64,000 nt of DNA from Owenia fusiformis (GCA_903813345.2 CAIIXF020000001.1:3100001-3164000), one strand, 5' to 3'; numbered from the stretch's first letter, positions 226 through 56,030 are shown. The notes: a model not told the origin generated them from the letters alone. Made by a program: numbers and translations.

Positions 226-321
226 TTAAGTTGAGAAGTTTGAAATTTTGAAAAATATAAAAAATTACAAATTATAGTATCGATTTACGGTTACAAGTCT
301 ATATCGGGAATCTGTTGTCGC

Positions 322-1086
322 TAAAGGAGTGGTATCGATATGGAGAACTGAATTCAACAATGTTTTTCTCTTAAACCAATCCTTGAAAACATTCTGTAAA
401 ACACGGTATTTTATGTAATGTTGACTGATTGACAACAATTTAATGCGAAAACTATTTAGAAATATTTTATATAACTGTTTTTGTTAACATTTTTTGTTTT
501 TTTAATGCAATTGTTTTTGCTCCTTTCTACCAATTCTTGAGAATGAAATAAAATGTCTCCGAACCTCGTTGGAACAAAACATGTTTTTAGACCATGTAAT
601 AACATGTTTTAAACATGTAACAACATGTTTATAGACCTCTCAATATTATAGTTATACAAACGAATTTTTGGTTGATTTTAAAATTTTTAAAAAGTATTCA
701 AAAAATTAAAACAGAATCCCCCCATTATAGATAAAAATCAAGATAAACCTTTTATTTCATTAACAAGATACTTATTTAAAATCAACCAAAATTTCCTTTG
801 TACAATCACAATATTGAGAGGCCTAAACATGTTGTGTTTATGTCGTTTTGTTCCAATGAGGTTCGGAAAGATGTTTCATTTCACTCTGGAAACATGATAC
901 CAAGAACAAAACAAGTGTTTGGTGAGTTTTCTAAAACAATATAGATGAAAGTATATATATATATTTCAAATTATATTGTAACCATTCAAAAGAGGATCAT
1001 TAAATTGAGGATGTGTTTTTTTAGATTTTTTTGACTGGTTTAAGAGAAACGTATGTTTAAAAAGTTCTCCACATTAGGTACACTTT
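322..1086. mobile_element. Old, almost fully palindromic MITE
   Basis: Nested inverted matches (342-381/1033-1072; 540-585/845-886; 633-680/777-823). Confidence 0.6.
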
Positions 1087-1653
1087 ACAAAACATTGCAT
1101 TTTAAATTGAAGTTCCTAACAAGCATGTCACTTCATTAAATGCTCAAAATATTCTCCTTTATACTGGATGCATAGTTTCTGGAGCTTCACCCATTCTTCG
1201 TATTGAGCCCTAAAGCCACAAGGGAATTAAGTGTTAAATTATGGGACTTTGAAAACTTAATCACATAATCATCATTTGAGATTTAGAAACGTTTAAAACA
1301 ATGTAATATTGCTGCAACGAATTTTGAGACAAATTAATAGCTTGTTATAATTTCATAATGTAGGCCTTTACTAAAAAATAAGTACTGCATTGATCCTCGA
1401 GAACTTTTTGCTTTTTAATTCCCTTTGATTTCAGATTAACCTAAACATTTCTGAGTAAGTCCCTGGTAGATCATAATGCAGTGTCTGCAAAGTGACCTTC
1501 TTAAAGTTTATAAATTATGCTGTTTGACAAAGTGATCAATATATGCCAGAGCTAATGGCATAATCAAGAGCCAGGTGCTTATTTTGCTGACCTTACTTAC
1601 CAGTGCGTCGCATAAAATAAATACAGAGATCATTATATCAGACAAAAGACAAA

Positions 1654-1659
1654 TTTATT
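1654..1659 (-). promoter_or_regulatory. Candidate polyadenylation signal for terminal exon B
   Basis: AATAAA on minus strand ~170 nt after the stop codon; a weak signal in AT-rich DNA. Confidence 0.4.
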
Positions 1660-1831
1660 CCGATGAATTATATCAATAACAATTTCATAATGAAAGAAAC
1701 GTCTGAAATGAATTAAATCAATGTTTAATTCACCTAGATGTACAAGTAAATACAGTAGAAGTGTTATCCCAGACATGTGTGTAATTGGTGGTCGGCCCTA
1801 TATATTTGGTCAGTCGATCCTATAGGTCCTA

Positions 1832-2007
1832 CTAACATGGTACTGGTACCATAATTGCGGGTAAACATCTCTGTTCCTCAGCACTAAACAGCAATCCCCG
1901 CTGACACTCCTTGTGTGTGATCCTGTTGTTAAAACACTCAATATATTTTCTACAAGTTGGGTCTGTTGTGTCTGCGATCAAAATCTTTGAATTGGAACAT
2001 GAGATAC
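1832..2007 (-). CDS. Terminal exon copy B: chitin-binding type-2 (peritrophin-A/CBM14) domain
   Basis: TTTTCAG acceptor, phase 1; [57 protein letters not shown] then TAG TAG; Cys spacing CX14CX5CX9CX12CX9C. Confidence 0.85.
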
Positions 2008-5000
2008 CTGAAAATATATGTAAAAGCAGTCATTATCAGAGACATGTAGACATGCAGAGTGACATGAATATAACTCACATTGTGAGGCCATATATTATCA
2101 GCGTTGTACTTAAAATACGTTAACCTGGTAGACGACAGGCGTTGGTTGCATTCGCGAATACAAGCTTATATTTGGACTCTTTCAAATTCGGATCCATATT
2201 TGGGTTTCATATAAAATCCTAGATACCCGTTCAATTCTTCAACCCTAATGTCTGTGGAGGGGTCAATCCGACCCCCCTCGCTCTCGAATTTTTCAGTGCA
2301 ACCTTGTCCTCCTTCATTTTTTAGCTTGAGCCACTACTACAAGACACTTTTTGCGTAAAAACCAAGGTGATTGGGGTAGAGAGGTAAAGTTATGATAGTT
2401 GGAACTTGAAGCAGGTTTTAAACATATAATGATAAAATTGAAATTCATAAAATATTGATTGTTACTTTGTTTCTTATTCTCTTGAAAATACCAGAAAGAA
2501 GATTATTGCTTTGTTTGATAGGCTTAGAAAATAATTTAGCATATTGCATTTTCTTTCCAGTATGCTTTATTTCATGAAAATCAAGCCGAAACAACTGGTC
2601 GTGAAACGCGTTCTCTTCACGAATTTGCGAGAAAAACGGATTTTTGAAATACTACTCCATGAATACCTTTGAATTGCTTTGGCATATTACTAAAGGTTTA
2701 TGCACACTACGGTATCAGAATTATGATGATACCTTTTCCCAACCTTTAGATATAATTTTTTATCCCCCGTACCCCCAATTTTTCAATTTCGCTATTTCAA
2801 TGTTTGTGCCGTTGCCAGGTGGTTGCTAGGCAACATTATGGACGGAAATTATATTGAAACAATACCAATCCATACATTCATACATCTGCATACTAAACCA
2901 CTGATTGGCATTTGTTGTAAATCTTGAAATATACAGGGTGGTCCAAAAAAATTGGAACATTTGATAATTGAACTCAAAATCGTTATTTTTTCTCTACAAT
3001 GCACCAGAATTTTACTGAGTATTTGTTCAATCACTTATTTATCTGATGTAAAGTTTATAGGTGCAAACAACAAAGTTAATCCATTAAACTAGAAAATGTT
3101 TGATATGACCCCTTTTCTCCCGAATTACAAGTTGAAGTCTGGGACTCAGTTTTGAAATGATCCATTCACTTTGCTGTTCGTTTGATTTTGTCCAAGCCAT
3201 CTTGATTAAAATTCAGCTTAAACAAACGGACCGAACAAACTACTTATATGTTAGCCTTGGAAGATCAAATATATGAACATATTCAACATTTCTTTACCCA
3301 AATTGATGGGTATCAAGCATATTTTGATGGCTATTGTTAGATATATTACTGATTGAATATTCTCCAGGGCAGTCTGTTTTGACTGGTAAATGAACCCCCT
3401 CTCCTTTCTTGTTCTAATATGAAATTCAATAATATTCATTGAATATATCAATATATGTATATCAATATCATAAAGCAGTTTCCCAGAACACAAATGATAT
3501 ATTATATTATGTGTGCTTAGAGGTGGTCTTTAATAAAGCCTTGTAAATAACTAGTCAGTTTCCCCTCTACTGAAAATTGGGAACAATGATTTTGTCAGTT
3601 TAGTAGCTGTATGGGTTATGCAACCACTCACCTCTGACACGTTCGTTCTTTCCTACTCTTAAATAAAAATAATGATTTGGGGTATTCTTAAGTTGACAAT
3701 AGTTTTCCAATAAACCATAGATGTTAATACCTCATGTCAACCAAATATGATTTTATAAAATGTGTATAACAATCAACATGTTCATGAAAGTTTTGAAATA
3801 AAGAATACTTGAAAAAGTAGCTGCGAAATTGACAAGTGTATATTTAAGAATAGGGGGTCATATCAAACATTGACTAGTTTAATGCATTAACTTTGTGGAT
3901 TGCACCTATAAACTTTACATCAGAGAGATAAGTGACTGAACTATGCTCAGTGAAATTTTGATGCATTTTAGAAGAAAAATAAAGGTTTTGTGTTCAATTA
4001 ACAAATGTTCCAATTTTTGGACCACCCTGTATATATGCTAAAGACAATATGGTTAAAGAAAGCTTTGTCTCCATCTGATCTGATCTTCGTTGAATTTTTA
4101 AAAAGTCTCGACCTGGAAATGAATTTCAACGCCATCAAAAGTAAAGCCATTGAATTCGCGAATCTCAAAAATGTGAATTCAAAGTTCAACTAATCGTCAC
4201 GGACGGAGAGACGCCTAGAAGATTACACATGCTCACTGCTGCGTGAGCCAATACTAGCTTTTAACGAGTAGGAAACAAACCATTCATATCTCCCTTGAAG
4301 TTTTACAAACTTTCAAATGTATACTAAGTTTATTAGATTCCTCCGTTAAGACAACGAACTTCATCGGATGGAACTTCAAAAAATCGGTTAAGACCAGGTT
4401 CCGTTTAGGTAATAATAGTGAGGTATCATATCAATGATTCTGTTTGACCTATTTGTTCGCAAATTTAAAGGTCCTACTAACATGGTACCATGATTGCAAG
4501 TAAACATCTCTTATCCTCAGCACTATACCGCAATCCCCACTGACACTCCCTATGTGTGATCTTATTGTTAAAACACTCAATATATTTTCTACAAGTTGGG
4601 TCTGTTGTGTCTGCGATTGAAACCTTTGATTCGGAGCATTGGATACCTGAAAATATATGTTAAAGCAGTCATTATCAGAGACATGTAGACATGCAGAGTG
4701 ACATGAATATAACTCACATTGTGAGCCGAAAAAACTGGTCGTGAAACGCGTTTTCTTCACGAATTTGCGAGAAAAACGAATTTTTGAAATACTACTCCAT
4801 GAATACCTTTGAATTGTTTTGGCATATTCCTAAAGGTTTATGCACACTACGGTATCAGAATTATGATGATACCTTTTTCCAAACTTTAGATATAATTTTT
4901 TATCCCCCGTACCCCCAATTTTTCAATTTCGCTATTTCAATGTTTGTGCCGTTGCCAGGTGGTTGCTAGGCAACATTATGGACGGAAATTATATTGAAAC

Positions 5001-8000
5001 AATACCAATCCATACATTCATACATCTGCATACTAAATCACTGATTGGCATTTGTTGTAAATCTTGAAATATACAGGGTGGTCCAAAAAAAATTGGAACG
5101 TTTGATAATTGAACTCAAAAAATTTTCTCTACAATGCACAAGAATTTTACTGAGTATTTGTTCAATCACTTATTTATCTGATGTAAAGTTTATAGGTGCA
5201 AACAACAAAGTTAATCCATTAAACTAGAAAATGTTTGATATGACCCCTTTTCTCCTGAATCACAAGTTGAAGCCTGGGACTCAGTTTTGAAATGATTCAT
5301 TCACTTTGCTGTTCGTTTGATTTTGTCCAAGCAATCTTGATTAAAAATTCAGCTTGAACAAACGGACCGCACAAACTACTTATATGTTTGCCTTGGAAGA
5401 TCAAATATATAAACATATTCAACATTTCTTTACCCAAATTAATGGGTATCAAGCATATTTTGATGGCTATTGTTGGATATATTACTGATTGAATATTCTC
5501 CAGAAAGAGGTCAGGGCAGTCTGTTTTGACTGGTAAATGAACCCCCTCCCCTTTCTTGTTCTAATATGAAATTCAATAATATTCATTGAATATATCAATA
5601 TATGTGTATCAATATCATAAAGGAGTTTCCCAGAACACAAATGATATATTATATTATGTGTGCTTAGAGGTGGTCTTTAATAAAGCCTTGTAAATAACTA
5701 GTCAGTTTCCCCTCTACTGAAAATTGGAAACAATGATTTTGTCAGTTTAGTAGCTGTATGGGTTATGCAACCACGCACCTCTGACATGTTCGTTCTTTCC
5801 TACTCTTAAATAAAAATAATGATTTGGGGTATTATTAAGTTGACAATAGTTTTCCAATAAACCATAGATGTTAATACCTCATGTCAACCAAATATGATTT
5901 TATAAAATGTGTATAGCAATCAACATGTTCATGAAAGTTTTGAAATAAAGAATACTTGAAAAAGTAGCTGCGAAATTGACAAGTGTATATTTAAGAATAG
6001 GGGGTCATATCAAACATTGACTAGTTTAATGCATTAACTTTGTGGATTGCACCTATAAACTTTACATCAGAGAGATAAGTGACTGAACTATGCTCAGTGA
6101 AATTTTGATGCATTTTAGAGGAAAAATAAAGGTTTTGTGTTCAATTAACAAATGTTCCAATTTTTTGGACCACCCTGTATATATGCTAAAGACAATATGG
6201 TTAAAGAAAGCTTTATCTCCATCTGATCTGATCTTCGTTGAATTTTTAAAAAGTCTCAGACCTGGAAATGAATTTCAAGGCCACAAAAAGTAAAGCCATT
6301 GAATTCGCGAATCTCAAAAATGTGAATTCAAAGTTCAACTAATCGTCACGGACGGAGAGACGCCTAGAATATTACACATGCTCACTGCTGCGTGAGCCAA
6401 TACTAGCTTTTAACGATTAGGAAACAAACCATTCATATCTCCCTTGAAGTTTTACAAACTTTCAAATGTATATTAAGTTTATTAGATTCCTCCGTTAAGA
6501 CAACGAACTTCATCGGATGGAACTTCAAAAAATCGGTTAAGACCAGGTTCCGTTTAGGTAATAATAGTGAGGTATCATATCAATGATTCTGTTTGAACTA
6601 TTTGTTCGCAAATTTAAAACTGCTATTCCTATTAAGTCATATCCACATTCATTTTATGTATAACCAAAGTGCCTAATTAACATGCAATCACCATTACCTA
6701 ATTTCGCCCGTTCCGGGAAATTGCCGATTTTGACGTAAAAATACAATTCACATTATGACTACAGGGTCTTGGATCATTTATTTTTATATTTAATGTCTTT
6801 GTATTAAACTTTTGTACTCTAAAAAATAAAAAAATGAGGATTTGAAAAACCGACGATGCTACATGTATCGTTTATTCATCAAAATACCAATCAGGAAAAA
6901 ACGGATTTTTCTAGTCAAACTCAACCCAAAAACGGAAATATTAATGAAAATTGAACGTGGATTAAACCAAAAATATTTTTATACAACCCGGAGAACCCGG
7001 ATTTTTTTAAATCAGCCCGGAATTTCAAAAATTCTTAAGTTGAGAAGTATGAAATTTTGAAAAATATATAAATTACTTATTATAGTATCGATTTACGGTA
7101 ACAAGTTTATATCGGGAATCTGTTGTCGCGAAATTTGCAACAATCCTAGCTATCTATCAATAGACTTCTTTACGTAAATGAACATACTTAAACATTTATC
7201 ATAGTGTTGCACGATCCTTTGATGAAAAAAACTAATTTACTTTTAAAATTTTCACAAATGGCTTCCTCTCCAGTCCATTTTCCTTCTTTTGTACAAATCC
7301 TTACTGCGTCTCCTTTGAGGACATATCCAGGGTTACACCTATATTTCATGTTCATACCAATATAGCCTCCAAAGCCAGTCACTATTCCATTGCTGGGGTT
7401 CTTCAGGGTCGGACACTTCTTAGATTCTGAAAATGACAATTGTGAAGATTTTGCTTTTGCATGAATTTGAAGTATGATGACACTACAGGGTGTTCCAAAA
7501 GTAACAGGACTGGTGCTGGCATTTTGTCGAATATGCACCAATCGTCTTCAAAATTTTACATAATGTACTTCCATGTATTGTAACTAAGACTGCCAAGTTT
7601 TGACAAAAATTATGAAACTGGGGTAGAGTTATGGTTGCTATGGCAACATGACATCACAATACCCGGGGCAACATTCCACACAGAAAGTTACAGAGACTTT
7701 AAGCATTTTGTACATCCCATAGCAAAGTTAGAATCCAACAACTGGTGGGAATTACATTTGCTAAATACATTATTTGATATTCCTCTTTGGTCAGTCCAAG
7801 AGTAGCACTCAGTATCCATGACTCAAACACATGAGTGAACCCATTTGATGACATGTCACGCAGGGTCGATAGGACAACTTGGAGAAGGTCATTCTCATCT
7901 TTAAAGGTCTTACCGCGCTGATTAGCATTCCATTACCCATATAAAAGTAAAAATTAGATATTGCATGATCAGAAGAGTATGATGCATGGTCTTAGATCTC

Positions 8001-11000
8001 AAGATCTAGCTCCGCTATAGCTGCAGTGGTCTTTAATGCTGACTTGCGGGCAGACGCCTTATCAAGGTGGATGACTGGCTTCAAATTGGGTCTTTTCAAA
8101 AACTCAACAATGAATTGTGCAGACTGTTATACATAATAATATTTTAGGAAATTGAATAAATATTATTATTTTGAAATCATGCTTGAATCTGAGTTGTATA
8201 GCAACCCCATAACTATAAAGCAACTAATAAAACAAACAAGAACTTTTGTATTGTAATAGGCGAATTAGATACTTTCTTCAGTCATATAAAAATGTTAGAT
8301 ATTACATTTTCATGAAAAAGTTGCCCCGGGTATTGTGATGTCACGTTACTATAGTAACCATAACTTTACCCGCATTTTATCATTTTTTCTGAAACTTTGC
8401 AATTTTAGTTGCACTACTTCAAAGTACAATTTGTGAGAATTTGAACATACTTGGTGCAGAATTGACAAAATGCCAGCACCAGTCCTGTTACTTTTGGAAC
8501 ACCATGTATATGAAGTATACAGTATGAAGTATGACGATACAAATGAAAAGTTGAAAGTTGGACATTATAACTAATTTTCATTGAATCCTGGTGATCAGAC
8601 CAATAATCAGTCATCTGGAAAAAAAGTAATTCGAATTACATCAAGTGACATTCAAACGGTAACATTTTAAGCCACATTCGGGCAGTGGGTGAAGAGTAAA
8701 TACAATTGTATAAGGTATTTTCATGAATCCTCTGAGCTTGGAATTTTATTATCTTAAAAAAGAATAAAATCAGTTTATGCTGTGGCTTAAGACTCACGGT
8801 AATCTGATTGTTTGCTACATTTAGGAGGAACGCCTGAGTAATCGCCACCTAATTTGCACCACCTAGATCTTGAGCCTTCAAGGGTCTCCCCCTCCTTGCA
8901 ATTATAGCGTACTACAGAATTCAAGTATCCATTGGATACTACCTCCTCAATAACTCCAGATGGAGTCCTGGGTGGAACACACACTGAAAATAATTATGTT
9001 CCATCATATACTAAGGGTAAATCCTGTCGAGGCTGTAGAATCTGGGAAGGTAAAATGCTGAAAATTATTTACAATACACCAGAAAACATTTGGTCATTTT
9101 GGAGTTATTACACCAAAAGTAGAGACTTTTATTAATTTCGTCAAAATGTCGCATTTGTTACAAAATGGAAAATTTTGATTACAGACCAATCAAAATAAAA
9201 TGTTTCCCTATATTTAACAAATAAATTATAATCAAAACCAATGAAATTCTATGTTAGGCTTTTTAGGAATGTGCATGCAAAATGTGGTGACTTAACTCTT
9301 AAAAGTGAAGAAATGAGAGTAAATTTACAGACTTGGGACTTGTGTTGTCTCGGCTACTAACTAAGTTCATTAAATGGTAAAATCCATTCCTTTCATGAAC
9401 AGGACGGGTGTAAGATAAATTCAGTTCAGTTAAGCCAGATTACAAGAATTCTGAGCAATTTTTGGGGAATACGAAGGTCAGTGAAAGTCCTCCATCATAT
9501 CCATCCATCATGAAACCTAGATCAGTATGTAACTAGTTGACTGAGAAATCATAACCATTATTAAAGGTGGTGCAAAGTAAGCATTCAAAGTTGTACTGAC
9601 ACAGTGAATGTTCAAAACATTATTAATGTTCAAGTTCAAATTTGTTCTATTTTCTTCATAATTGTGCACATTTTTCCATATGGTCCTTTTTGCTGCAACC
9701 CTCTCCCGGGAAATTGGATCCCAAAAGCCTCTTGAACAGCAATGAAACTTATAGTTTTTTGATACCATTTATCCAGTTTTTTCAGTCAGTCTTTGTCAGT
9801 TGAACCATGTTTTGCCTTATGTGTACATCTACAGGGTGTCAAATAAGTCCCGTCCCCCCTCTACAGGCAACACCAAGATATTTGGTACCAAGTGTGATAT
9901 ATCATTGGAAAGGTCTTCCAAAGTTATACGTTGATTGGCATATATCTGACACATGTCAATCAATCTCACAAATTTTTACATTGTATCAATTGAGGTGACC
10001 ACAGGCCTAGAAACATGGCAATTTTGGCGTATTTGGCAGGATTTTAAGAATCGGGTATAAGAAAGGTCAAAGGACCAAAATATGACTTAATATGTATATG
10101 GCAATGAATTGAACCAATTGCTGGATAGGGTTAGATGTGCAGAAAATAGAGATGCAAGGAAAGTGGTGAAAACCTTTTTATGTAACAAGTGGAATGCGAA
10201 AAAGATTAACTTTTTGACGTTTTTCACTGACACAGTGAATGTTCAAAACATTATTAATGTTCAAGTTCAAATTTGTTCCATTTTCTTCATAATTGTGCAC
10301 ATTTTTCCATATGGTCCTTTTTGCTGCAACCCTCTCCCAGGAAATTGGATCCCAAAAGCCTCTTGAACAGCAATGAAACTTATAGTTTTTTGATACCATT
10401 TAACCAGTTTTTTCAGTCAGTCTTTGTCAGTTGAACCATGTTTTGCCTTATGTGTACATCTACAGTGTGTCAAATAAGTCCCGTCCCCCTCTACAGGCAA
10501 CACCAAGATATTTGGTACCAAGTGTGATATATCACTGGAAAGGTCTTCCAAAGTTACGTTGATTGGCATATATGTGACACATGTCAATCAATCTCACAAA
10601 TTTTTACATTGTATCAATTGAGGTGACCACAGGCCTAGAAACATGGCAATTTGGCGTATTTGGCAGGATTTTAAGAATCGGGTATAAGAAAGGTCAAAGG
10701 ACCAAAATATGACTTAATTTGTATATGGCAATGAATTGAACCAATTGCTGGATAGGGTTAGATGTGCAGAAAATAGAGATGCAAGGAAAGTGGTGAAAAC
10801 CTTTTTATGTAACAAGTGGAATGCGAAAAAGATTAACTTTTTGACGTTTTTCAGAGGTCATATCCTTGTCATTTTGACGCAAAAAGCTGATTAAATGAGG
10901 GCATGTTAACAATAAAGGACATCATGAAAATATAGGTAAATTTCATCCAAAATACTTGAAAGTTGGTGTGTTGACATAACTTTGGATGATCTTTCCAATG

Positions 11001-14000
11001 GTATATCACACAAGATACCATATATTAAGGTTTTAGCTATAGAAGGGGGACGGGACTTATTTGACACCCTGTATATATGTTAATATGTCTGTAACAACAT
11101 AGTTCCCATGTCATCTAAGTCTGATATGGTTGAAATAATATAGCATAACGTCAACTTTAAAATAGATTAATTCAATGAAAACTAAAAATATCGAAATCGA
11201 CAAATACCGTTCACCATCTTAGATGCGAAGGTCACAGTCGTTACTTTCGCTTGATACTTACCAGTGGCTTATAAGTCATCATGTATGAACAAAATCACTC
11301 TATTACATTTCGTGTTATAGTAAAAAACATAAATGACATCCGACATTGACAGTGTGCCATGATTATAAGTCATCATATACTAAATATGAACAAAATCGCT
11401 TCACTGCTTTTCAAATAATAGCAAATGTAGTTAAATAGCATGTAAGGCCGGCCGTTTTCCAAGATGACTGCCATGTGTTTCTTAAATATCTACATTTCGA
11501 CCTTCATTAATGTCTTATCAAACTTTTTTACCTCAAAAACATAAACAATATTACAGTTTCACATACATTTCGTAGTATCGTAGAAAACATAAATGACACG
11601 TGTAAAATGTCAGCCATTTTCAAAATGGCCGCTTAAAAGCCAAAGTGTCAAAGACAATGCCCAATGCTTATAGGTCACCACATATTAAATAAGAATAAGA
11701 GTAACAAAATTTCTCCACTACTTTTGAAGTTATAGCAAAAAATATTAGTTTTAGACTTGTAAAAATCTGCACTAAAATAACCGTCATTTTAATAAGAGCG
11801 GCCATTTTAAAATCGACTTTTGAGCATAACTTCTACTGGGCACATATGAATAAAATATGAACTGGTCAGCGGTATTTGAGTTAGCGCCCGGACAGACGGA
11901 TGTACGGATGGACCGAGGCGTTCTCTAAATCCCTCAAAACTTCGTTTGATTGAATAATTATGCATTAGTATAGAGGGATTTTTCGAAAATAAAATTGACA
12001 AGGATATCAATTGAGCCCATTATATTATCGAGCCCATTTTATTAAATCGGGACGTTTTCTTGCGAAAGTTACTCTCTAGATCTCATATCATCCACTGGCT
12101 CTATCTTTAACATAACCTACGAGTATACTCTAAATATAGAAGTAGATTTCATTTTAACATAGGCATTCAGTTTTTTATTATATATGTTGGATTACCTTCC
12201 TGGCAGAGATCTCCTTTAATACCACTAGGACAAGAGCATTTGAAGCCTGGCTTAGTATTGACACATTTACCATCGTTCCAACAAGGGTTGGTTGGCTTAC
12301 ACTCATCAATATCTGGAATATAGTGTAGGCTATGATTTATCAGTTTCTGTCACCATTTTGTATATGTTAATAACAAAAAAATATTTGTCTATACAGTATT
12401 TGTAGCAGTTTATGTCAATAGTTGTTGCCATATCAATATCTGTAGTACTATGTGTCAATATGTACACCACTATATGTCAATATATGTTGCATAATGTGTC
12501 AGTTTCTGTTACCATACATATATGATATATGTCATTATCCATGATTGAAAGGATTTAGATCAAATGATGATATATTTGATATCTGGATCAATGTATCATA
12601 TTTTAGCCAAAATCCCCAAACTATAAAATATTACTTCTTAAAAAACAGAGGATATTCCTATAATATCTGTAGTACTGTATGTCAATATTTATTCCATGAT
12701 GGTAAAATTCCCTGCAATCTGATTGGTCCACGTGACTTAAATATATCCTGTATTTACACGCAAATTCCACTGAGCGTTGGATACAGAGTGAAAATTTTGC
12801 AGCGTTGGGATACGGTCCAGTATCCCAACGCCCCAGATTTCCATCAAGGATATGACTATTACTGAAAAAATCAACGCATGCTAATATTTGCATTTTGCTA
12901 CAAATATCTGATTTGAATATCAGGAAATGATACGGTGATCATCACACTTTATAATTTTAGGATAAAACACGCATCGGTGAATATAACAAAAAATCAATAT
13001 GAAGCATGAACATTGTTTTCATGAACAAGTAAAAATCCAATATGGCAACGAAAGTCGAAAAAACGTTTCGCTACACTGCACTTCCAGTTGATGAAATTGA
13101 AGAAAAAATAAATGAAATCAAACTTATAATACAATAAAAGCAACCAAGGCCGAAAGGATTTGAAGGAATTTCGATGTAAAATATCTTTGAGGTGAGAAGG
13201 TTGATCTGTTTCTCCGGTCCCAAGCCAAGGAAATGGACTTGATTAAGGGGAGTTTTATCTGAGTAATCATGGAATAAAAACGTTATTCAATGATTTCTCG
13301 TAAAATACAAAAAATATTCTTCCCTTGAAGGTCTGTATTTCACTCTGCTAGCGCATCGTGAAATACGACCTTCTCGGGAAGAATGTTTTCTGTATTTTAC
13401 TCGAATCATTGAATAACTTATATTATTATATCATTGCTAGAATTTGTGTCCTTTGATTGGCTGATTCAGTACCATGTGATCAAAAATACCAAAGCGTATT
13501 TCACACCTCCCTTAATTTTGGAATAATAAAAGACGTATTGCCCGGCGTATTGCCCGCCCGGGAATTCTGAATCGTCCCGTTTCGTCCAGTACAGTTGTGA
13601 CGTGCATCAAAATGGCAGACAGAAAAAGATTTAAAAGTCTGAATTCCGATGAAAAGAACGACATCTTGAGGGATGTGCATTCTAAAAACACCATTAAATC
13701 AACGGAATGACATCTAATGTCTTAGAACATTTTCAAGTGTTATGTGGACGAAATAGACGTTAAATCTATCGATAAAATCGTTCTGGATGGAATTTTAGAG
13801 TTTTTTTTGGAACTGCGAACGAAGGATGGGGAATATTACAAGAGTGCCAGTCTGCAAAGTAAGCGAATGTCTAGCAATGATATAATAAAACAAATATTTC
13901 ATTCTATGTTCGGGCAATACCTGTTGCACTTTCAATGATTTTTGCAGCATGTATTTCCCTCGCACTTCGGGCTGCGGGCAATACATGCTGCAAAAATCAT

Positions 14001-50000: not shown

Positions 50001-53000
50001 ATAACCTCAGAAGTTCCTACTTTTTAAAAAAAATGCAATTTTCCATGATCATTTTTATGTCACCACCACAAGTGGTGACATATTGTTATGGTCTCAAACT
50101 ATTTTGTGGACGGTGTTCAGTGGTTGGTGTTTATCATTTGGCAGTTGGTGTTTGGCAGTTGGTGTCTGTAACAAATGGCAGGTGTTGACATTTTGCATGT
50201 GAATGCCTTGTCTTATAATGTAGCCAACTGCAATGGATGTAAAACGGATACAGTTAACTAATACATTTCTTGGCATCAATTCAAATCATATGCTAATTTT
50301 AAATGAAAATGCTTTTTTTCATGTTTTACCACTCATAAATGCCATAATATCTCGATGTCACATTCAGGAAAATATGGCTATCAACAAGTTTTGAATTCTT
50401 ACAATCCTGGAAGTTGTACATGTAAGCGTGCACATCTGTCAGTTCAGTTTATGTGTAAAAGTTAATCCCCTAAGCCTTAATACCTGATGCATGAAATATT
50501 ATGAATAAGTTACATAATATGTACTCGTGCTATTTAGGTAAATGTTGTGCTGTTTCACCAGATTTGACTGACATCTTTAAATAACAACAATTTGATTTGA
50601 TGATCAGACAGCAACAAAACATATTAAGTGGCCAAGACAAAAGAATGTTATTATGATAGGCATTCTAGGGATTAAGGAATGCATTCAGCTTACATAATTT
50701 GAGAAATTATTGGCATACGTAAAACCTATTTAAAACAGCATTTATCGTATTCAAAAGCGTTGAGCATCATTGATTCCCAGCCCTCTGAAGATTGAAAAAT
50801 AAAAATACCTGGGTGTTAATCCCTGGATTATCTTTGAAAATGAGAAATATATTTTTGGATTACATGGTGTAATCTTAAAGTAAACAAAATGTTTTAAAGT
50901 GTATTGATGTTTTTTGGATGAAAAACATAAGCAAAATTCATGAAAAAAATCCCCCGATTCATTCTACAAACAACTCGCCCTCCTTTCGATGAACATGCGA
51001 ATTGTGTATTTTTGGCGCAGTAACTGTGCAGTAACTGTGACGCAGTAACTAGCGCTGATAACGATTTTATTACAATAACGCTTTGCTTTCTGGCATAAAA
51101 TTGTACAAGACATAATTTTTTACATGGATTTGGGCACTCATTTGTTAGTAGCGCCATCTGCAATATATACTTCAAAATATATTGGTCATCACTGAAGAAG
51201 TGAGGCAAGATTATCATAATAGTGCTATGCATTAATGTAAAATATGTAGGATAAAACTATGTCAATGACCAATTTTCATTAAATGACCAACCTGCCTTCT
51301 GTTCACATGTTCGACCACTCAAGCCTTGAGCGCATTTGCATGTAAAACCTGTTTGTGTGGCTGTGCATTTTCCACCATATTTGCATGGATTCGGTACACA
51401 TTTGTTGGTGGTAATAGCTGAAACACATTTATATTAAAAGATATATTTGGCCATCACTGAAGAAGTACGGATAATATAACCATAATAGTGTTATGCATTA
51501 TGTAGAATATGTAGGTGAAAGTGGAATACATGTCTATGACCAATTTACATTAAACTAGATGAAACAGCAACTCCAACAGAACATATTTTGATAATTTGTG
51601 GCCATCCACTGGAATTTGATATTATATTTTTTCCAAATAATGGCAGCCATTTTGAAATTCAGCTGCCATGTTCAAATTTCTTCTTGGACAATGAAAATAT
51701 TTTCTTGAGCAGACCTTAGATAAAGTTAGTTATCAAAGATTACGTTTATAACAAAAAGGCAGCCAATTTGAAATTTAAGTGTCATCTTGAACTTTATTTG
51801 ACCCAAATCCAAATAGGATAGGAAGCCGTTATTCAAACTCGATACTCCGACTAGAACTGCTGAGGAAGCTTGAATACTACCAAAATATTCTTAATGGCCA
51901 TCTTTCAATGAAATACTTGGTCCAGAGAGAACCTTATAGAAATATTTTTACTAAATTGTTCCACTGCAGGCAACGGAGTATCGAGTTTGAATAATGGCTG
52001 CCAATCCTCCTTGAACCACATCCGTTCACTGGTATTGAGTAATCATAAATAATGTTTTTTTCACGAAAAATGGCGGCCATTTTAATATTCAGCGGACTTC
52101 TTCAAAATAACTTCTTGAGCAAAGCTCTTGGCATCAGAATATAGAATTTGAACCAAATCCATCAACTAGTACTGAGTTATCTAAGATTACATGTTTTACG
52201 AAAATTGCAGCCATATTGAATTGAGCGCGATATTGAAAATTCCTTCTCGAGTAGAAGTCCTATATCTCATATATAAGGCATAAGCCTATAAAATTTCAAT
52301 CAAATCCGACAACCGGTATTAAAGTTATCGCCTGGACAGACGGACGGACGAACGGACGTACAGACGGATTTCCTATATCCCCCTCGAACGTCATTCCTTG
52401 GTATAATAACCAACCTGCTCTCTGTTCACATGTTCGACCACTCCAGCCCGAAGCACATTTGCATGTAAAACCTGTTTGGGTGGCTATGCATGTTCCTCGA
52501 TTTTTACATGGATTGGGTGAACATTTATTCTGTGTACATGTTGAACCACTCCAGCCCAAAGCACATTTGCATGTGAAACCTGTCCTTGTGGCTGTGCATG
52601 TTCCTCGATTTTTACATGGATTGGGTGAACATTTGTTGGTAGTAATAGCTGCAATAATTTCATACTACAAAATATATTGGTCATCACTGAAGAAGTGGGT
52701 CAAAAGTACCATTCTAGAGCTATGTGGTAATGTAGAATAATTATGTAGGATAAAACTAGAATAAATGTCAAATACCAAATTTACATGACATGACCAACCT
52801 GCTCTCTGGACACATGTTGGGCCTTTCCAGGCTGGAGCGCATTTGCATGTAAAACCTGTTCGTGTGGCTGTGCATGTACCACGATTTTTACATGGATTGG
52901 GAGAACATTTGTTGGCGGTAATAGCTGCAATACATTTATACTACAAAATATGTTGGCCATCATTAAATAAGTGAGTTAAAATTACCATTCAAGGGCCATG

Positions 53001-56000
53001 CCTTAATGTAGAATATGTAGGATAAAACTAGAATACATGTCAATGACCAATTAACATTACATGACCAACCTGCTCTCTGGACACATGTTGGACCTTTCCA
53101 GCCTGTAGCGCATTTGCATGTAAAACCTGTTCGTGTGGCTGCGCATATTCCACGATTTTTACATGGATTGGGAGAACATTTGTTGGTGGTAATAGCTGCA
53201 ATACATTTATACTACAAAATATGTTGGCCATCATTAAATAAGTGAGTTAAAATTACCATTCAAGGGCCATGCCTTAATGTAGAATATGTAGGATAAAACT
53301 AGAATACATGTCAATGACCAATTTACATTACATGACCAACCTGCTCTCTGGACACATGTTGGACCTTTCCAGCCTGTAGCGCATTTGCATGTAAAACCTG
53401 TTCGTGTGGCTGTGCATATTCCACGATTTTTACATGGATTGGGAGAACATTTGTTGGTAGTAATAGCTGCAATACATATATACAAAAAATATATCGGTCA
53501 TCATTAAATAAGTGAGTTAAAATTACCATTCTAGGGCCATGCCTCAATGTACAATATGTAGGATAAAACTAGAATACATGTCAATGACCAATTTACATTA
53601 CATGACCAACCTGCTCTCTGGACACATGTTGGACCTTTCCAGCCTGTAGCGCATTTGCATGCAAAACCTGTTTGGGTGGCTGTGCATGTTCCTCGATTTT
53701 TACATGGATTGGGTGAACATTTGTTCTGTGTACATGTTGAACCAGTCCAGGCCAAAGCGCATTTGCATGTAAAACCTGTTCGTGTGGCTGTACATATTCC
53801 ACGATTTTTACATGGATTGGGAGAACATTTGTTGGTGGTAATAGCTGCAATACATTTATACTACAAAATATGTTGGCCATCATTAAATATATAAGTGAGT
53901 TAAAATTACCATTCTAGGGCCATGCCTTAATGTAGAATATGTAGGATAAAACTAGAATACATGTCAATGACCAATTTACATTAAATGAACAACCTGCTCT
54001 CTGGACACATGTTGGACCTTTCCAGCCTGTAGCGCATTTGCATGTAAAACCTATTCGTGTGGCTGTACATGTTCCACGATTTTTACATGGATTGGATGAG
54101 CATTTGTTAGTAGTAATAACTTTCTGTTCACATGTTCGACCACTCCAGCCCGAAGCACATTCACATGTAAAACCCGTTCGTATTGCTGTGCATGTACCAC
54201 GATTGTTACATGGATTGGGAGAACATTTGTTGGTAGTAATAGCTGCAATACATATATACAAAATATATCGGTCATCATTGAAGAAGTGAGTTAAAATTAC
54301 AATTCTAGAGCTATGGATCAAAAGTACAATAGTACAATAACGTCATTCTGAAGGGCAATATAGTGAAATATTGGACCGAGGGCCATATTTACTAACTGAT
54401 TTATCCTATACTTAGTAGATTATGAGAATTAAATATGCATTGAATGTTAGGGAACCCTACTGTAATTATCGTTTGTGATTTTTAAATAAAAAATCATCAA
54501 AACATGAATAATATTTTATCTCAATTTAAAGTCCTCAACAATATTTTCACATTCAACAGTGTGTGAAATTAATATTTATCAAATAGAGCCAAAGTATATC
54601 CCGGGAATTCAAAAAAGCGCCGAAAGAAATTCCCGGGGATCGCTGATGAGCGGGTGATATATATGTATATCTCCCGCTCACCCTAGCGGGAGATATATAT
54701 ATTACCCAATCACCTCAGATATCGATTATATTCCAGTATGTTATTTACCTATAACACTACTAAGTATGGAATAATTCACTATATTGCTCGCAACTAAATA
54801 GTGATATGAAGGATTAAATATATAACCAAAAAAGTAGAGGACCAAAAAGCAGCTCTATTTCTGTAGGATTTCAACCATAACTGATAAAGCCTAATTTGTC
54901 ATGAAATGCTAGATTTATTGCAGCATTCACTAGTTCCAGTTGCAGATTCATCATTTCAACTTGCAGAAAACTGCTGTATTGAGTCGATTAACTCATTAGG
55001 GTAATAGCCAGGGACAACCGCATAAGGATACAATTGGATATATTGTAGACTATTATATTATTATTGAATAATCTTTAATCTAATTTGATTAGAATAAAGC
55101 ATATCATTTACCCTTTGTGTTACATGTAGTTCCTGTCCATGCATTTCTACACGTGCATTTAAATTTAGTTCCCACGGTTGAACATCTACCAAAGTTCTGA
55201 CATGGGTTTGGTAGGCAGGGTTTTACTAAAACATGTTAAAAACTAATAAGTATCAAAGCCTCGTTTGTTATAAAAACGCAAAATATATCTCACAGAATTA
55301 TTGCGGCATTTGCAGAATTCATCATTTTGACTCTCAAAGATGTATTGACATATTGACAACTTACTGCAAAAGGATACAAAGTACTTTTCAGTAATATCAT
55401 GTCATGTCATGGATAGACACATTCAAATGGTATAACAATGATCTGACGACTAGAAAAGATTTGACAGGACTGAATGATAAAACATTGATACCATTTAATA
55501 GATAATCTTCTACTTGATTTAAAGGGGCAATAAGGACTGTAGAGAAAATATGAAAGTTTTTTCATTTTTTCTGAGCTATCAAGGCAACATTTGGTTTAAC
55601 ATCTTCTTTGACATACCTATTTTCTTAAAATGTATGGATAAATTATCAATTTCAACATTAAGAAGTGTAAATTCAGTTCAAAGCTTCAAAAAGGGGACTT
55701 CCACTTTTATATTTTTAATATCCACCATGTTTCAAGAGGAATATCAGCTAAAATAATGTTTATCTAGGGGGTTTCTTTGTAGATAATAAAAATAGATGTT
55801 AGTCTGATGAAATATCCAAACTTAAATATATTTTGACACTGGTCCATGATCATTGAATGACCCCTCTGCACTAATTATTGCACCTTTAATTAGGAATATA
55901 GCATATAACTTACATTTTGTCTCACATATAGTTCCTGTCGATCCAGCTTTGCAAATGCATTTAAAGTTAGTTCCCAGTTTTGCACATCTACCAGCGTTCT

Positions 56001-56030
56001 GACATGGGTTTGGTAAGCATGGGTTTTTTA
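1832..56030 (-). CDS. Multi-exon gene model: ~32 EGF-like domains + 2 sushi/CCP domains + C-terminal chitin-binding type-2 (CBM14) domain; probably a secreted matrix protein; 5' end not identified
   Basis: 31 internal GT-AG exons, all phase 1-1 and multiples of 3 nt, join without stops; six-Cys EGF spacing in the EGF exons; no transmembrane exon seen. It is unresolved whether 51-56 kb and 7-36 kb form one transcript. Confidence 0.8.
2934..4029. mobile_element. Tc1/mariner-type non-autonomous element
   Basis: TA|CAGGGTGGTCCAAAAA...TTTTTGGACCACCCTG|TA, long imperfect TIRs. Confidence 0.85.
4477..4646 (-). CDS. Terminal exon copy A: chitin-binding type-2 (peritrophin-A/CBM14) domain
   Basis: Same acceptor; [55 protein letters not shown] then TAG TAG; spacing CX14CX5CX9CX12CX7C. 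Confidence 0.85.
5074..6177. mobile_element. Same Tc1/mariner MITE, copied by the segmental duplication
   Basis: Same termini and same flanks as 2934-4029. Confidence 0.85.
7241..7426 (-). CDS. Sushi/CCP domain exon 2
   Basis: 186 nt, [14 protein letters not shown]...[30 protein letters not shown] (4 Cys + Trp). Confidence 0.92.
7486..8506. mobile_element. Tc1/mariner-type MITE
   Basis: TA|CAGGGTGTTCCAAAAGTAACAGGACTGGTGCTGG...inverse|TA, ~190-bp TIRs. Confidence 0.85.
8798..8983 (-). CDS. Sushi/CCP domain exon 1
   Basis: 186 nt, [17 protein letters not shown]...[32 protein letters not shown]. Confidence 0.9.
9595..10853. repeat. Recent ~631-bp tandem duplication
   Basis: 9595-10225 is near-identical to 10226-10853. 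Confidence 0.95.
9832..11071. mobile_element. Tc1/mariner-type MITE with duplicated left end (9832 and 10463)
   Basis: TA|CAGGGTGTCAAATAAGTCCCGTCCCCCT...AGGGGGACGGGACTTATTTGACACCCTG|TA. Confidence 0.8.
12196..12312 (-). CDS. cbEGF exon
   Basis: 117 nt; [39 protein letters not shown]. Confidence 0.92.
12688..13417 (+). mobile_element. Crypton-like non-autonomous element
   Basis: Short IR TTTATTCCATGAT (12688/13266) followed by a ~135-bp terminal hairpin (13282-13417); decayed MATKVEK...DEIEEKINE...NTIKAT remnant. Confidence 0.6.
13423..14043 (+). mobile_element. Crypton-like element with N-terminal recombinase-gene remnant
   Basis: IR TTATTATATCATTGCTAGA (13423/13870) plus terminal hairpin 13891-14043; [10 protein letters not shown]...NTIKSTE* and [24 protein letters not shown] resemble the Crypton/ZMYM/KIAA1958 N-terminal region. 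Confidence 0.7.
14180..14293 (-). CDS. cbEGF exon
   Basis: 114 nt; [38 protein letters not shown]. Confidence 0.92.
14554..14667 (-). CDS. cbEGF exon
   Basis: 114 nt; [38 protein letters not shown]. Confidence 0.93.
14898..15011 (-). CDS. EGF exon
   Basis: 114 nt; [38 protein letters not shown]. Confidence 0.92.
15211..15324 (-). CDS. cbEGF exon
   Basis: 114 nt; [38 protein letters not shown]. Confidence 0.92.
15523..15639 (-). CDS. EGF exon
   Basis: 117 nt; [39 protein letters not shown]. Confidence 0.9.
15882..15995 (-). CDS. cbEGF exon
   Basis: 114 nt; [38 protein letters not shown]. Confidence 0.92.
16263..16376 (-). CDS. cbEGF exon
   Basis: 114 nt; [38 protein letters not shown]. 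Confidence 0.92.
16667..16780 (-). CDS. cbEGF exon
   Basis: 114 nt; [37 protein letters not shown]. Confidence 0.92.
17145..17285 (-). CDS. EGF exon with extended C1-C2 loop
   Basis: 141 nt; [49 protein letters not shown] acceptor, GTAAGT donor. Confidence 0.85.
17685..17801 (-). CDS. EGF exon
   Basis: 117 nt; [39 protein letters not shown]. Confidence 0.92.
17975..18088 (-). CDS. cbEGF exon
   Basis: 114 nt; [37 protein letters not shown]. Confidence 0.92.
19490..19785. repeat. Degenerate ~30-bp tandem repeat
   Basis: Recurrent GGTAGTTTTTRCGGGAGATTTTTNNAAAAA units. Confidence 0.7.
20027..20535. repeat. Inverted arrays of 15-bp minisatellite (CCCATTTCGCCCCTT)n; truncated foldback MITE
   Basis: C-rich arm 20027-20256, G-rich arm 20302-20530, ending GGGAAGACACC. 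Confidence 0.85.
22103..26047 (-). mobile_element. Full-length ORF1-less CR1/L2-group LINE (APE + RT), two 1-nt frameshifts
   Basis: ORFs 25988-23745, 23709-23053 and 23105-22257 join; NINSL, GDFNA, SDH (APE); [19 protein letters not shown] (RT); 12-bp TSD CTTTTACAGTTT (22091-22102, 26048-26059); 3' stem-loop ACAGGGCC/GGCCCTGT, AATAAA and A-rich tail. Confidence 0.95.
22257..25985 (-). pseudogene. LINE polyprotein: hydrophobic leader, 2A-like motif, AP endonuclease, reverse transcriptase
   Basis: Frameshifts at a T run (~23750) and an A run (~23108) on the coding strand; otherwise open for ~1240 codons. Confidence 0.88.
27120..27852. mobile_element. Transib-like MITE
   Basis: CACGCCCGGTGATCGTA termini, ~90-bp TIR plus internal inverted blocks, 5-bp TSD AAACT. 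Confidence 0.75.
28802..28915 (-). CDS. cbEGF exon
   Basis: 114 nt; [38 protein letters not shown]. Confidence 0.9.
29100..29745 (-). mobile_element. Penelope-like retroelement 3' RT fragment (degenerate)
   Basis: [17 protein letters not shown]...[15 protein letters not shown]...LLGKGF resembles the PLE RT C-terminus (DFNFxIVNFPFLxSNIP...SQLIRYARACS). Confidence 0.6.
29833..29946 (-). CDS. cbEGF exon
   Basis: 114 nt; [37 protein letters not shown]. Confidence 0.92.
30414..30539 (-). CDS. EGF exon
   Basis: 126 nt; [41 protein letters not shown]. Confidence 0.9.
31062..32113 (+). mobile_element. mariner (DD34D) internally deleted element
   Basis: TA|CGAGGGTTGATCCAAAAGTTCCG termini, ~190-bp TIRs; FHLDN...[17 protein letters not shown]...[11 protein letters not shown] remnant at 31500-31818. 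Confidence 0.92.
32201..32317 (-). CDS. EGF exon
   Basis: 117 nt; [39 protein letters not shown]. Confidence 0.9.
33900..34013 (-). CDS. EGF exon
   Basis: 114 nt; [38 protein letters not shown]. Confidence 0.9.
35015..35128 (-). CDS. EGF exon
   Basis: 114 nt; [37 protein letters not shown]. Confidence 0.92.
35256..35378 (-). CDS. EGF exon
   Basis: 123 nt; [40 protein letters not shown]. Confidence 0.9.
36074..36202 (-). CDS. EGF exon (5' boundary ambiguous: AAG acceptor giving an exon start at 36202 or 36178, or ATG at 36260)
   Basis: [48 protein letters not shown] donor. Confidence 0.8.
36294..46574. mobile_element. 10.3-kb CACTA/CMC-type non-autonomous element
   Basis: CACAGCAAAAAATGTGAATC termini, 3-bp TSD ATG, ~500-bp near-perfect TIRs made of GAATCCTG/CAGGATTC subterminal repeats (~55-bp units, 110-bp dimer); no transposase ORF seen. 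Confidence 0.88.
46905..47017 (-). pseudogene. Degenerate EGF pseudo-exon related to the 55.1/55.9-kb exons
   Basis: Same acceptor context (CATTTTATAG); [37 protein letters not shown] keeps only 2 of 6 Cys; 113 nt to GTAAGT (frame-breaking). Confidence 0.7.
47059..47792. mobile_element. Helentron/HINE-like non-autonomous element
   Basis: AACTAG start, GACG microsatellite and terminal hairpin region; similar in layout to 51555-52406 and to the element ending near 11957. Confidence 0.5.
48202..50986. mobile_element. DNA transposon with ~305-bp TIRs (Kolobok-like AAAGG end; TSD not intact)
   Basis: 48202-48507 is the reverse complement of 50681-50986; internal palindrome 49492-49594. Confidence 0.75.
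51115..51157 (-). pseudogene. Truncated last unit of the tandem EGF exon array
   Basis: Array-type intron and TGCAG acceptor, then GATNK-TGA in place of Cys1, a 1-nt shift, and loss of homology after CCATGTAAAAA. Confidence 0.7.
51292..51417 (-). CDS. Array EGF exon
   Basis: 126 nt; [42 protein letters not shown]. Confidence 0.88.
51555..52406. mobile_element. Helentron/HINE-like element inserted in an array intron
   Basis: Interrupts the conserved intron motif CAATTTACATTAAAT(G/A)ACCAACC within its A run; (GGAC)n microsatellite near the right end; no TSD. Confidence 0.65.
52415..52648 (-). CDS. Array double-EGF exon
   Basis: 234 nt; [18 protein letters not shown]...[20 protein letters not shown]...GRTCEQRA. 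Confidence 0.88.
52799..52924 (-). CDS. Array EGF exon
   Basis: 126 nt; [42 protein letters not shown]. Confidence 0.88.
53070..53195 (-). CDS. Array EGF exon
   Basis: 126 nt; [42 protein letters not shown]. Confidence 0.88.
53341..53466 (-). CDS. Array EGF exon
   Basis: 126 nt; [42 protein letters not shown]. Confidence 0.88.
53611..53844 (-). CDS. Array double-EGF exon
   Basis: 234 nt; same CTQ/NKCSP internal junction as 52415-52648. Confidence 0.88.
53994..54242 (-). CDS. Array double-EGF exon
   Basis: 249 nt; ...[25 protein letters not shown]... Confidence 0.88.
55112..55225 (-). CDS. Basic EGF exon
   Basis: 114 nt; [37 protein letters not shown]. Confidence 0.88.
55914..56030 (-). 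CDS. Basic EGF exon (most 5' exon recognised)
   Basis: 117 nt; [38 protein letters not shown]; has an acceptor, so further exons lie upstream. Confidence 0.88.

Follow-up and report, generated by a model that had tools for sequence, protein, structure and literature searches.

The minus strand of a 64,000-nucleotide (nt) stretch of Owenia fusiformis DNA (GCA_903813345.2, CAIIXF020000001.1:3100001-3164000; hereafter the window, with positions counted from its first letter) carries a single intact invertebrate gene, which extends over ~52-54 kb and codes for a mosaic extracellular protein of ~1,450-1,470 amino acids (aa). The window is AT-rich (GC 0.32-0.36) and resembles animal DNA in its long introns and many repeats. 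A pattern scan recovered the six-cysteine EGF signature 31 times on the minus strand and not once on the plus strand; a 32nd EGF module, distinguished by a long first loop, is encoded by the exon at 17145-17291 (-). In our gene model 32 exons on the minus strand run from 56030 down to 4477 (or 1832), each bordered by an AG acceptor and a GT donor, with all junctions in phase 1 (2 + 1 extra bases) and exons 1-31 all multiples of 3 nt in length (phase 1-1). The spliced open frame, ~4.35 kb of coding sequence, yields 1450 or 1452 aa depending on which of two terminal exons, copy A or copy B, is used, and comprises 32 EGF modules, all with six cysteines, followed by two sushi (CCP) modules and one CBM14 module. 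When Pfam was run exon by exon against its gathering cut-offs (GA: CBM_14 22.1, Sushi 20.7 and EGF PF00008 21.5 bits), PF00008 reached its cut-off in all 25 of the EGF exons tested (of 29), the lowest score being 21.6 against 21.5; the other four exons are near-identical copies within the tandem array described below. Such a domain pattern is far beyond chance, and this is a real, intact animal gene. An earlier note, made from the sequence alone, had proposed about 32 EGF, two CCP and one CBM14 module ending in a stop codon; its exon coordinates are correct, and the count and order of its domains are borne out by the gene model and the Pfam scores.

The remainder of the window adds no further domain to this architecture. 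Among stop-to-stop open reading frames (ORFs) of at least 45 aa, Pfam (E <= 1e-4) found no other domain in 226 minus-strand and 228 plus-strand ORFs, those of a LINE (long interspersed nuclear element) aside; in particular, LNR, ankyrin, laminin-G, CUB, avidin, VWA and pentraxin exons are absent from these ORFs, in agreement with what the earlier note had claimed for them. Likewise, a scan of the window for additional cysteine-rich ORFs that might represent missed exons gave no credible candidate. The claim that the product has no transmembrane segment also holds within the window, with the Kyte-Doolittle mean over 19-residue windows of the spliced model peaking at just 0.67.

The EGF chain falls into two oppositely charged parts. 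The first 529 residues (EGF1-13) form a strongly basic head (pI 9.4, K+R 78, D+E 12, net +66) with 86 Thr and 2 Tyr, which matches the prior description of the N-terminal repeats as basic and nearly Tyr-free. Ten of the twelve basic, Thr-rich, non-calcium EGF modules were recently multiplied by tandem exon-plus-intron duplication: the 271-bp units recur 4.4 times with 92% matches (Tandem Repeats Finder), their introns measure 144-150 nt, and the cores of EGF3-12 show 78-99% pairwise nucleotide identity. The tandem duplication of these units is the engine of the expansion of the array. Exons 1 and 2 are themselves related, with 82% nucleotide identity in their cores and homology extending to ~22 nt of the acceptor region. 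In searches of the PDB with a pair of array EGFs, Notch1 was the best match (E 1.3e-49) and Delta-like 1 was likewise far ahead of PVFP-5, the sole mussel foot protein in that database, which ranked 17th at E 2e-13. The resemblance to mussel foot protein 2 suggested before is therefore generic: the PVFP-5 match is significant, but the Notch1 and Delta-like 1 matches are far better. A word-index search with an array exon returned 32 matches, all of them generic EGF proteins of 38-57% identity and none with PF01607; the named ones (44-57% identity) include a fibropellin-like protein at the top, a jagged and an annelid EGF protein. By consensus motif, 17 of the 32 EGFs have an O-fucose and 7 an O-glucose site.

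The 743 residues that follow (EGF14-32) are acidic (pI 4.6, K+R 72, D+E 110, net -38). We scored calcium-binding EGFs by the presence of both an N-terminal D/N-x-D/N-E/Q motif and the C-x-D/N-x4-F/Y-x-C hydroxylation motif, and by EGF_CA (PF07645) at 27 bits or more. Of the 20 rod EGFs, 9 carry the two motifs together and a further 7 carry a single one. Thus, the designation of this region as a calcium-binding EGF rod was overstated; the acidic rod is real, and about half of its modules have calcium-binding motifs.

The C-terminus combines the two sushi modules, each with four cysteines and both above the Sushi cut-off (41.0 bits for sushi 2 and 25.8 for sushi 1), with a CBM14 module. Sushi 2 has the Trp that usually precedes the fourth sushi cysteine, whose position in sushi 1 is shifted. 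The cysteine spacing of the CBM14 module is C-14-C-5-C-9-C-12-C-7-C in copy A and C-14-C-5-C-9-C-12-C-9-C in copy B; relative to the peritrophin-A consensus, the aromatic residues (Tyr before C3, Phe after C3, Tyr/Phe in a GL-x-[YF] stretch) are in place, and in a 31-sequence CBM14 alignment each of the six cysteine columns shows either no variation or a conservation of at least 90%. Both copies exceed the CBM_14 cut-off, at 30.5 and 36.9 bits, as the earlier note had predicted of its last exon, and the fold agrees. An AlphaFold2 model of exon B, built on a 31-row alignment of short CBM14 relatives and leaning to the CBM14 fold inasmuch as that alignment consisted of CBM14 proteins, reached a pLDDT of 89.9. 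In a Foldseek search of the PDB its ranks 1-11 were exclusively CBM14-type domains (TMq 0.62-0.72, probability 0.99-1.00), among them Der p 23, the CBM14 of human chitotriosidase, Avr4 with chitin, Aplysia EHEP and Blo t 12; their E values, for so small a domain, were 0.007-0.16, with none <= 0.001. The closest solved relatives by sequence are the 25 kDa polyphenol-binding protein of the sea hare Aplysia (Eisenia hydrolysis-enhancing protein, EHEP; E 4.2e-8) and, second, squid beak chitin-binding protein 3 (E 3.1e-4). Membership in the CBM14 family is hence secure by Pfam, PDB sequence match and fold, whereas ligand specificity is not.

The most unusual feature of the gene is that this terminal exon is duplicated and that its copies diverge fast. 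The stop codon does directly follow the CBM14 module, as had been described, but there are two such exons (4477-4646 and 1832-2007) rather than one. The duplicated units match at 96.8% over 1901 nt of flank and at 91.4% over 243 nt that include the exon (blastn), and copy B has ~500 extra bases (2087-2583). The exon copies themselves differ at 20 of 165 nt (pS 0.18, pN 0.106) against 3.2% in the 1.9-kb flank (binomial p 4e-7), a divergence ~4x that of the flanks, and the 79 nt immediately upstream of the exons differ at a single position. Either the flanks were homogenised and the CBM14 exons kept distinct, or the exons have been driven to diverge; on both readings the disparity argues that both copies matter. 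The acceptor is kept in both copies, and both end in TAG TAG. Splicing of A and B in series was considered and rejected: the only in-exon GT checked in A, after an ATG codon, is in phase 0, and the acceptor of B is in phase 1. Such a product would be out of frame, and therefore the two copies are alternative terminal exons, or one of them is idle.

An exhaustive HMMER search over 1.84 billion representatives, with the copy B exon as query, retrieved 300 proteins at E <= 0.001. The best 150 of these 300 are nearly all multi-CBM14 proteins; EGF modules occur in 2 of the 150 and sushi modules in just one. That one, P0057, is an unnamed 250-aa fragment in which Pfam detects EGF, two Sushi and CBM_14 (27.8 bits) domains. 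It is identical to the spliced model at 172 of 221 positions (78%, E 8e-120) and colinear with it over three modelled junctions, EGF32|sushi 1, sushi 1|sushi 2 and sushi 2|CBM14; therefore, at least one other record has this C-terminal architecture, which is not an artefact. Identity to this fragment is 87% in EGF32, 85% in sushi 1, 82% in sushi 2 and 64% in CBM14, by which measure CBM14 is the fastest-evolving module. In its residues 222-250 the fragment also carries 29 extra basic, Arg/Pro-rich, non-hydrophobic residues past the last CBM14 cysteine, where both copies in the window stop; no counterpart of this tail was found in the window. The other EGF-bearing protein, P0137 (623 aa, unnamed), has N-terminal EGF modules and eight CBM_14 domains, from which we conclude that EGF-CBM14 mosaics exist in other arrangements.

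Further searches did not extend this picture. A word-index search with P0057 among longer proteins gave 12 matches, all sushi proteins of 26-46% identity and none with PF01607, and the same search with the copy B exon gave one candidate and no scoring match. In the ESM Atlas, P0057 scored 0.75-0.79, under the meaningful level, and an AlphaFold2 model of it from a 6-row alignment (pLDDT 45.6) was unusable. No published protein combining EGF, sushi and CBM14 was found in the literature searched. The earlier note recognised no named protein with this layout, and none was found by the exon-wise word-index searches, by HMMER or in that literature; no full-length ortholog of the same architecture emerged, and the partial relative P0057 shares the C-terminal part. 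The features of the gene are collected in Table 1.

Table 1. Exons and associated features of the EGF-sushi-CBM14 gene, in order of transcription. "Full motif" denotes the full calcium-binding motif; P0057 is the database fragment described in the text.
Feature	Position	Strand	Content	Scores and remarks
Candidate start exon	56032..56083	-	Putative signal peptide with its ATG, 17 codons	Met-Arg followed by ~14 hydrophobic residues; top of relaxed scan
Exon 1	55914..56030	-	EGF1, non-calcium type	Pfam EGF 31.9 bits
Exon 2	55112..55225	-	EGF2	Pfam EGF 31.1 bits; exon 1 paralog
Exon 3	53994..54242	-	EGF3-4, basic array	Pfam EGF 70.7 bits, 2 stretches
Exon 4	53611..53844	-	EGF5-6, basic array	
Exon 5	53341..53466	-	EGF7, basic array	Within 271-bp tandem unit
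Exon 6	53070..53195	-	EGF8, basic array	Core 99% nt identity to EGF7
Exon 7	52799..52924	-	EGF9, basic array	
Exon 8	52415..52648	-	EGF10-11, basic array	Pfam EGF 77.1 bits, 2 stretches
Exon 9	51292..51417	-	EGF12, final basic array unit	Pfam EGF 33.9 bits
Exon 10	36074..36202	-	EGF13	Pfam EGF 29.8 bits; acceptor picked by phase, least certain of model
Exon 11	35256..35378	-	EGF14	Pfam EGF 21.6 bits (borderline)
Exon 12	35015..35128	-	EGF15	Full motif
Exon 13	33900..34013	-	EGF16	
Exon 14	32201..32317	-	EGF17	
Exon 15	30414..30539	-	EGF18	
Exon 16	29833..29946	-	EGF19	Full motif
Exon 17	28802..28915	-	EGF20	Full motif; EGF_CA 33.4 bits (over cut-off)
Exon 18	17975..18088	-	EGF21	Full motif
Exon 19	17685..17801	-	EGF22	
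Exon 20	17145..17291	-	EGF23, long first loop	Pfam EGF 42.3 bits; alternative in-phase acceptor at 17285
Exon 21	16667..16780	-	EGF24	Full motif
Exon 22	16263..16376	-	EGF25	
Exon 23	15882..15995	-	EGF26	Full motif
Exon 24	15523..15639	-	EGF27	
Exon 25	15211..15324	-	EGF28	Full motif; EGF_CA 34.6 bits
Exon 26	14898..15011	-	EGF29	
Exon 27	14554..14667	-	EGF30	Full motif
Exon 28	14180..14293	-	EGF31	
Exon 29	12196..12312	-	EGF32	Full motif; EGF_CA 30.8 bits; 87% identity to P0057
Exon 30	8798..8983	-	Sushi/CCP 1	Pfam Sushi 25.8 bits; 85% identity to P0057
Exon 31	7241..7426	-	Sushi/CCP 2	Pfam Sushi 41.0 bits; 82% identity to P0057
Terminal exon, copy A	4477..4646	-	CBM14 then TAG TAG	CBM_14 30.5 bits (4480-4644); 64% identity to P0057
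3' flank of copy A	4334		AATAAA	143 nt downstream
Terminal exon, copy B	1832..2007	-	CBM14 then TAG TAG	CBM_14 36.9 bits (1835-2005); AlphaFold2 pLDDT 89.9
3' flank of copy B	1729; 1659		ATTAAA (1729), AATAAA (1659)	Original 3' flank retained
Tandem duplication	1844..6618		CBM14 exon and upstream intron sequence	Units 1844-4469 and 4483-6618
Tandem array	52536..53725		271-bp units	Unit is 126-nt EGF exon and ~145 nt intron

Several repeats and mobile elements lie in and around the gene. The only other coding signal in the window is that of a LINE-type retrotransposon at 22257-26036 (-), within intron 17 and in the same orientation as the gene, whose three ORFs (763, 236 and 284 aa) match Exo_endo_phos_2 and RVT_1 (endonuclease and reverse transcriptase); it is frameshifted and probably dead. 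The 15-kb intron 9 contains two arrays of a 53/106-bp satellite in opposite orientation, ~9.2 kb apart (36321-36809 and 46037-46547), which resemble the two ends of a large insertion of the foldback type, as well as an inverted repeat with copies at 48121-48437 (+) and 50751-51256 (-), ~2.3 kb apart, whose 70-aa ORF translations are nearly identical. In intron 29, near-identical ORF translations recur ~630 nt apart over 9517-10900 (e.g., 9517-9768 and 10178-10399 (-)), a sign that non-coding sequence has been duplicated in tandem. A low-complexity Pro/Phe-coding minisatellite at 19969-20550 is readable on both strands and has no Pfam match. The translation of an ORF at 31565-31762 (+) is reminiscent of the C-terminal motif of mariner/Tc1 transposases, with no Pfam match at E <= 1e-4. 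Upstream of the gene, a 183-bp satellite forms two arrays in opposite orientation (57011-57698 and 60783-61673; 3.8 and 4.9 copies), with the same peptide on opposite strands.

Three RNA runs with the same species label, of which 6-12% each was read, were aligned to positions 1-20000. The unique exon-bearing bins (12007-12673 and 14675-18009) are covered at 0.06-0.86x, with zero depth in three combinations of run and bin, and CBM14 copy A at 0.14-0.74x on both strands. Almost all reads in the exon-bearing bins are pairs with the first mate on the plus strand, which fits weak minus-strand transcription, provided that the libraries follow the usual stranded design. Two other signals occur in the same interval: positions 1-1334, where each run has RNA at 37-76x on either strand and numerous loose ends occur at 322/323 and 558, are an expressed repeat family outside the gene; at 11398-11870 a recurrent joint that skips 471 nt, with six extra letters and CT..AG ends, is seen in 38-59 reads in each of the three runs, and is a variant copy of a repeat located elsewhere rather than a splice of the EGF-sushi-CBM14 gene.

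As to the 5' end, a strict signal-peptide scan of 56031-64000 returned only an unconvincing ORF at 60124, while in a relaxed scan of the same interval the ATG peptide at 56083 ranks first. Among ~7 loci of this kind in 128 kb (the window on both strands) it is the strongest, and it lies 53 nt upstream of exon 1, whereas none of these signal-peptide-like loci adjoins any of the other 32 acceptors. With five rather than six A residues in the run at 56024-56029, its ORF would run directly into EGF1; alternatively, a GT at 56031-56030, overlapping the acceptor, could serve as a phase-1 donor joining the start exon to exon 2. We consider that this candidate is probably the true start. The last 22 nt of its ORF are homologous to the acceptor region of exon 2, and its hydrophobic stretch is partly T-rich and intron-like.

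Taken together, these features favor, by a modest degree of confidence, the interpretation that the gene codes for a secreted mosaic matrix protein tethered to chitin, a function that we infer from its modules. The product would be secreted via the probable signal peptide, and its C-terminal CBM14, supplied by either of the two tandem terminal exons, would bind chitin in a matrix such as that of cuticle, shell, radula or gut, with the two CCP modules serving as a spacer. From such a surface the EGF chain could project as a semi-rigid filament, its acidic rod being partly stiffened by calcium, while the cationic, Thr-rich and probably O-fucosylated head might engage anionic partners or the acidic rod of neighboring molecules; such head-to-rod contacts between molecules would be possible because head and rod are oppositely charged. 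The architecture itself can be attributed to phase-1 exon shuffling and duplication.

A number of observations weigh against this interpretation of a secreted, chitin-tethered matrix protein. The 56083 ORF is +1 out of frame with EGF1 over the six-A run, so that the claim of secretion has a strong signal-peptide candidate next to exon 1 in its favor but one that is out of frame in the assembly; the ORF could be a chance product, with the true 5' end beyond 64000. The EGF_CA cut-off is reached by only 3 of 20 rod exons, the scores being lowered because exon-wise translation drops the split first Asp codon. The lean of the exon B model toward the CBM14 fold of its own alignment belongs here too, as does the nearest solved relative of the CBM14 exon, which binds a polyphenol and not chitin: the last exon is indeed a CBM14, and the proposed anchoring to chitin is an extrapolation from it. 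Finally, no splice joints of the gene are listed in the three RNA runs over 1-20000, depth in the bin of CBM14 copy B is zero in all three, and no full-length ortholog was found with exon-by-exon queries among candidates of <= 2000 aa. The 5' uncertainty is at the heart of the most substantial competing explanation, a minority possibility in our estimate, according to which the window holds the 3' major part of a larger gene whose first exons (coding for the signal peptide and perhaps more domains or a membrane anchor) lie past 64000, the 56083 ORF having arisen by chance. Exon 1 does have a good phase-1 AG acceptor homologous to that of exon 2, the six-A run keeps it in the frame of that acceptor and not of the 56083 ATG, and no other start exon was found in 56031-64000; but a chance ORF would have to be the best of the candidates in 128 kb while falling on the right strand and <60 nt from the right place, and Pfam finds no domain in the 36 minus-strand ORFs upstream of 56046.

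The ligand question underlies a different proposal, which we consider unlikely: that the product is not a structural linker but a soluble protein for binding or recognition, its CBM14 binding a non-chitin ligand such as dietary polyphenol, or else microbial chitin, and its sushi and EGF modules being used as in invertebrate humoral immune or digestive-fluid factors. The ranking of the sea-hare polyphenol binder above the squid beak protein, the lower conservation of CBM14 relative to the neighboring modules of P0057, and the fourfold excess divergence of the exon copies over their flanks, a pattern that may be common in recognition domains, would all fit such a role. Yet the ORFs of the window revealed no effector domain, such as a protease or lectin, and it is rather in matrix or cell-surface proteins that a 32-EGF chain of ~1,270 aa would be expected. 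The Notch1 and Delta-like 1 matches of the array EGFs and the O-glycosylation consensus sites among the 32 EGFs might instead be taken to indicate a secreted modulator of Notch-type signaling, a diffusible Delta/Notch-like EGF protein; this is improbable, as such features belong to EGFs of the hEGF class in general and neither DSL, MNNL, LNR or ankyrin domains nor a membrane segment were found. Still more improbable is an adhesive plaque protein like mussel foot protein 2 without 3,4-dihydroxyphenylalanine (DOPA): the repeated basic EGF array and the significant PVFP-5 match speak for it, but the latter stands behind Notch and Delta chains, foot-protein names are absent from the 32 word-search matches, and Tyr makes up only 2 of 529 residues. 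The out-of-frame start and near-absent RNA could also mean that the gene is dying or silent, the frame break between start codon and EGF1 being real and the locus no longer translated. We assign this a very low probability too, for throughout the 4.35 kb of coding sequence all 32 exons retain an open frame, the cysteine pattern and canonical splice sites, the phase-1 donor overlapping the acceptor could still link the start exon to exon 2, and near-absent RNA was seen in three runs of unspecified tissue.

The duplicated terminal exons further suggest a speculative elaboration of the tethered matrix protein, one that we hold to be rather doubtful: the gene might produce two isoforms differing in the anchor only, by means of mutually exclusive terminal CBM14 exons kept or driven apart by selection, so that one EGF filament would be directed to two ligands (for instance, to chitin in two forms, or to chitin and a polyphenol). 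The filament would then be a block polyampholyte (+66 head, -38 rod) that could self-assemble head-to-rod into a charged network on chitin. If the CBM14 exons are indeed alternative and functionally different, the locus would offer a compact natural experiment on the retargeting of a matrix protein. More generally, the gene opens or settles no long-standing question, and is of value as a concrete example of phase-1 exon shuffling together with very recent tandem exon duplication in the building of lineage-specific invertebrate matrix proteins, in which an EGF filament is joined to a tail of sushi and CBM14 modules that is otherwise known from bivalve shell proteins. It is also a candidate to be sought in shell, cuticle, radula and gut-lining proteomes, where automatic annotation would probably mislabel it as "fibropellin-like" or "Notch-like".

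Among known systems, several share individual parts of this architecture. In the last exon the gene is like the peritrophin-A/CBM14 proteins (peritrophins, squid beak CBP-3, Der p 23, the chitotriosidase CBM14 and Aplysia EHEP) by Pfam, PDB match and fold; unlike it, the best 150 of the 300 relatives are nearly all multi-CBM14 proteins, with EGF in 2 and sushi in 1. With Notch, Delta and Jagged it shares the hEGF class, phase-1 EGF exons and O-fucose/O-glucose consensus sites; these proteins are the best solved matches of the array EGFs, and jagged-1b is among the named proteins at 50-53% identity. It differs from them in lacking DSL, LNR, ankyrin and transmembrane segments and in ending with sushi and CBM14. 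The fibropellins resemble it as long secreted EGF chains with a different C-terminal binding module, and the top word-search match bears their name ("fibropellin-1-like", 44% identity). The C-terminal module of fibropellins is an avidin-like domain, and fibropellin-1 also contains a CUB domain; neither was found here, where the C-terminus is sushi-sushi-CBM14-stop. The SVEP1, CSMD and furrowed-type proteins, the best named matches of P0057 (26-34% identity), are likewise EGF and sushi mosaics, but their VWA, HYR, pentraxin, CUB, lectin and F5/8-C domains are missing here, and PF01607 is present in none of the 12 matches. Mussel foot protein 2 and PVFP-5 have repeated basic EGF modules in common with the gene. 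Mussel foot proteins are rich in Tyr/DOPA, and the foot protein 2 type is expressed in the foot gland; the present head, with its 2 Tyr in 529 residues, is closer to Notch/Delta.

The nearest described layout is that of PifCCP, a subfamily of the Pif/BMSP shell matrix proteins of bivalves, which have VWA, many CCP, CBM_14 and laminin-G domains (PMC11291548). Like these secreted lophotrochozoan matrix proteins, the product of the gene has a CCP then CBM_14 tail; unlike them, it has no VWA, no laminin-G, only 2 CCP and a chain of 32 EGFs, which PifCCP is without (PMC11291548). A mussel shell proteome includes a "sushi-like protein" with ChtBD2 (PMC6641155); EGF, sushi and CBM14 are recurrent shell-proteome domains (PMC13425148, PMC3374290), and the shuffling of EGF domains into lineage-specific matrix proteins of lophotrochozoans is documented (PMC4595640). 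Set beside these systems, the gene is an unnamed version of a familiar type of mosaic matrix protein and an unsurprising product of exon shuffling.

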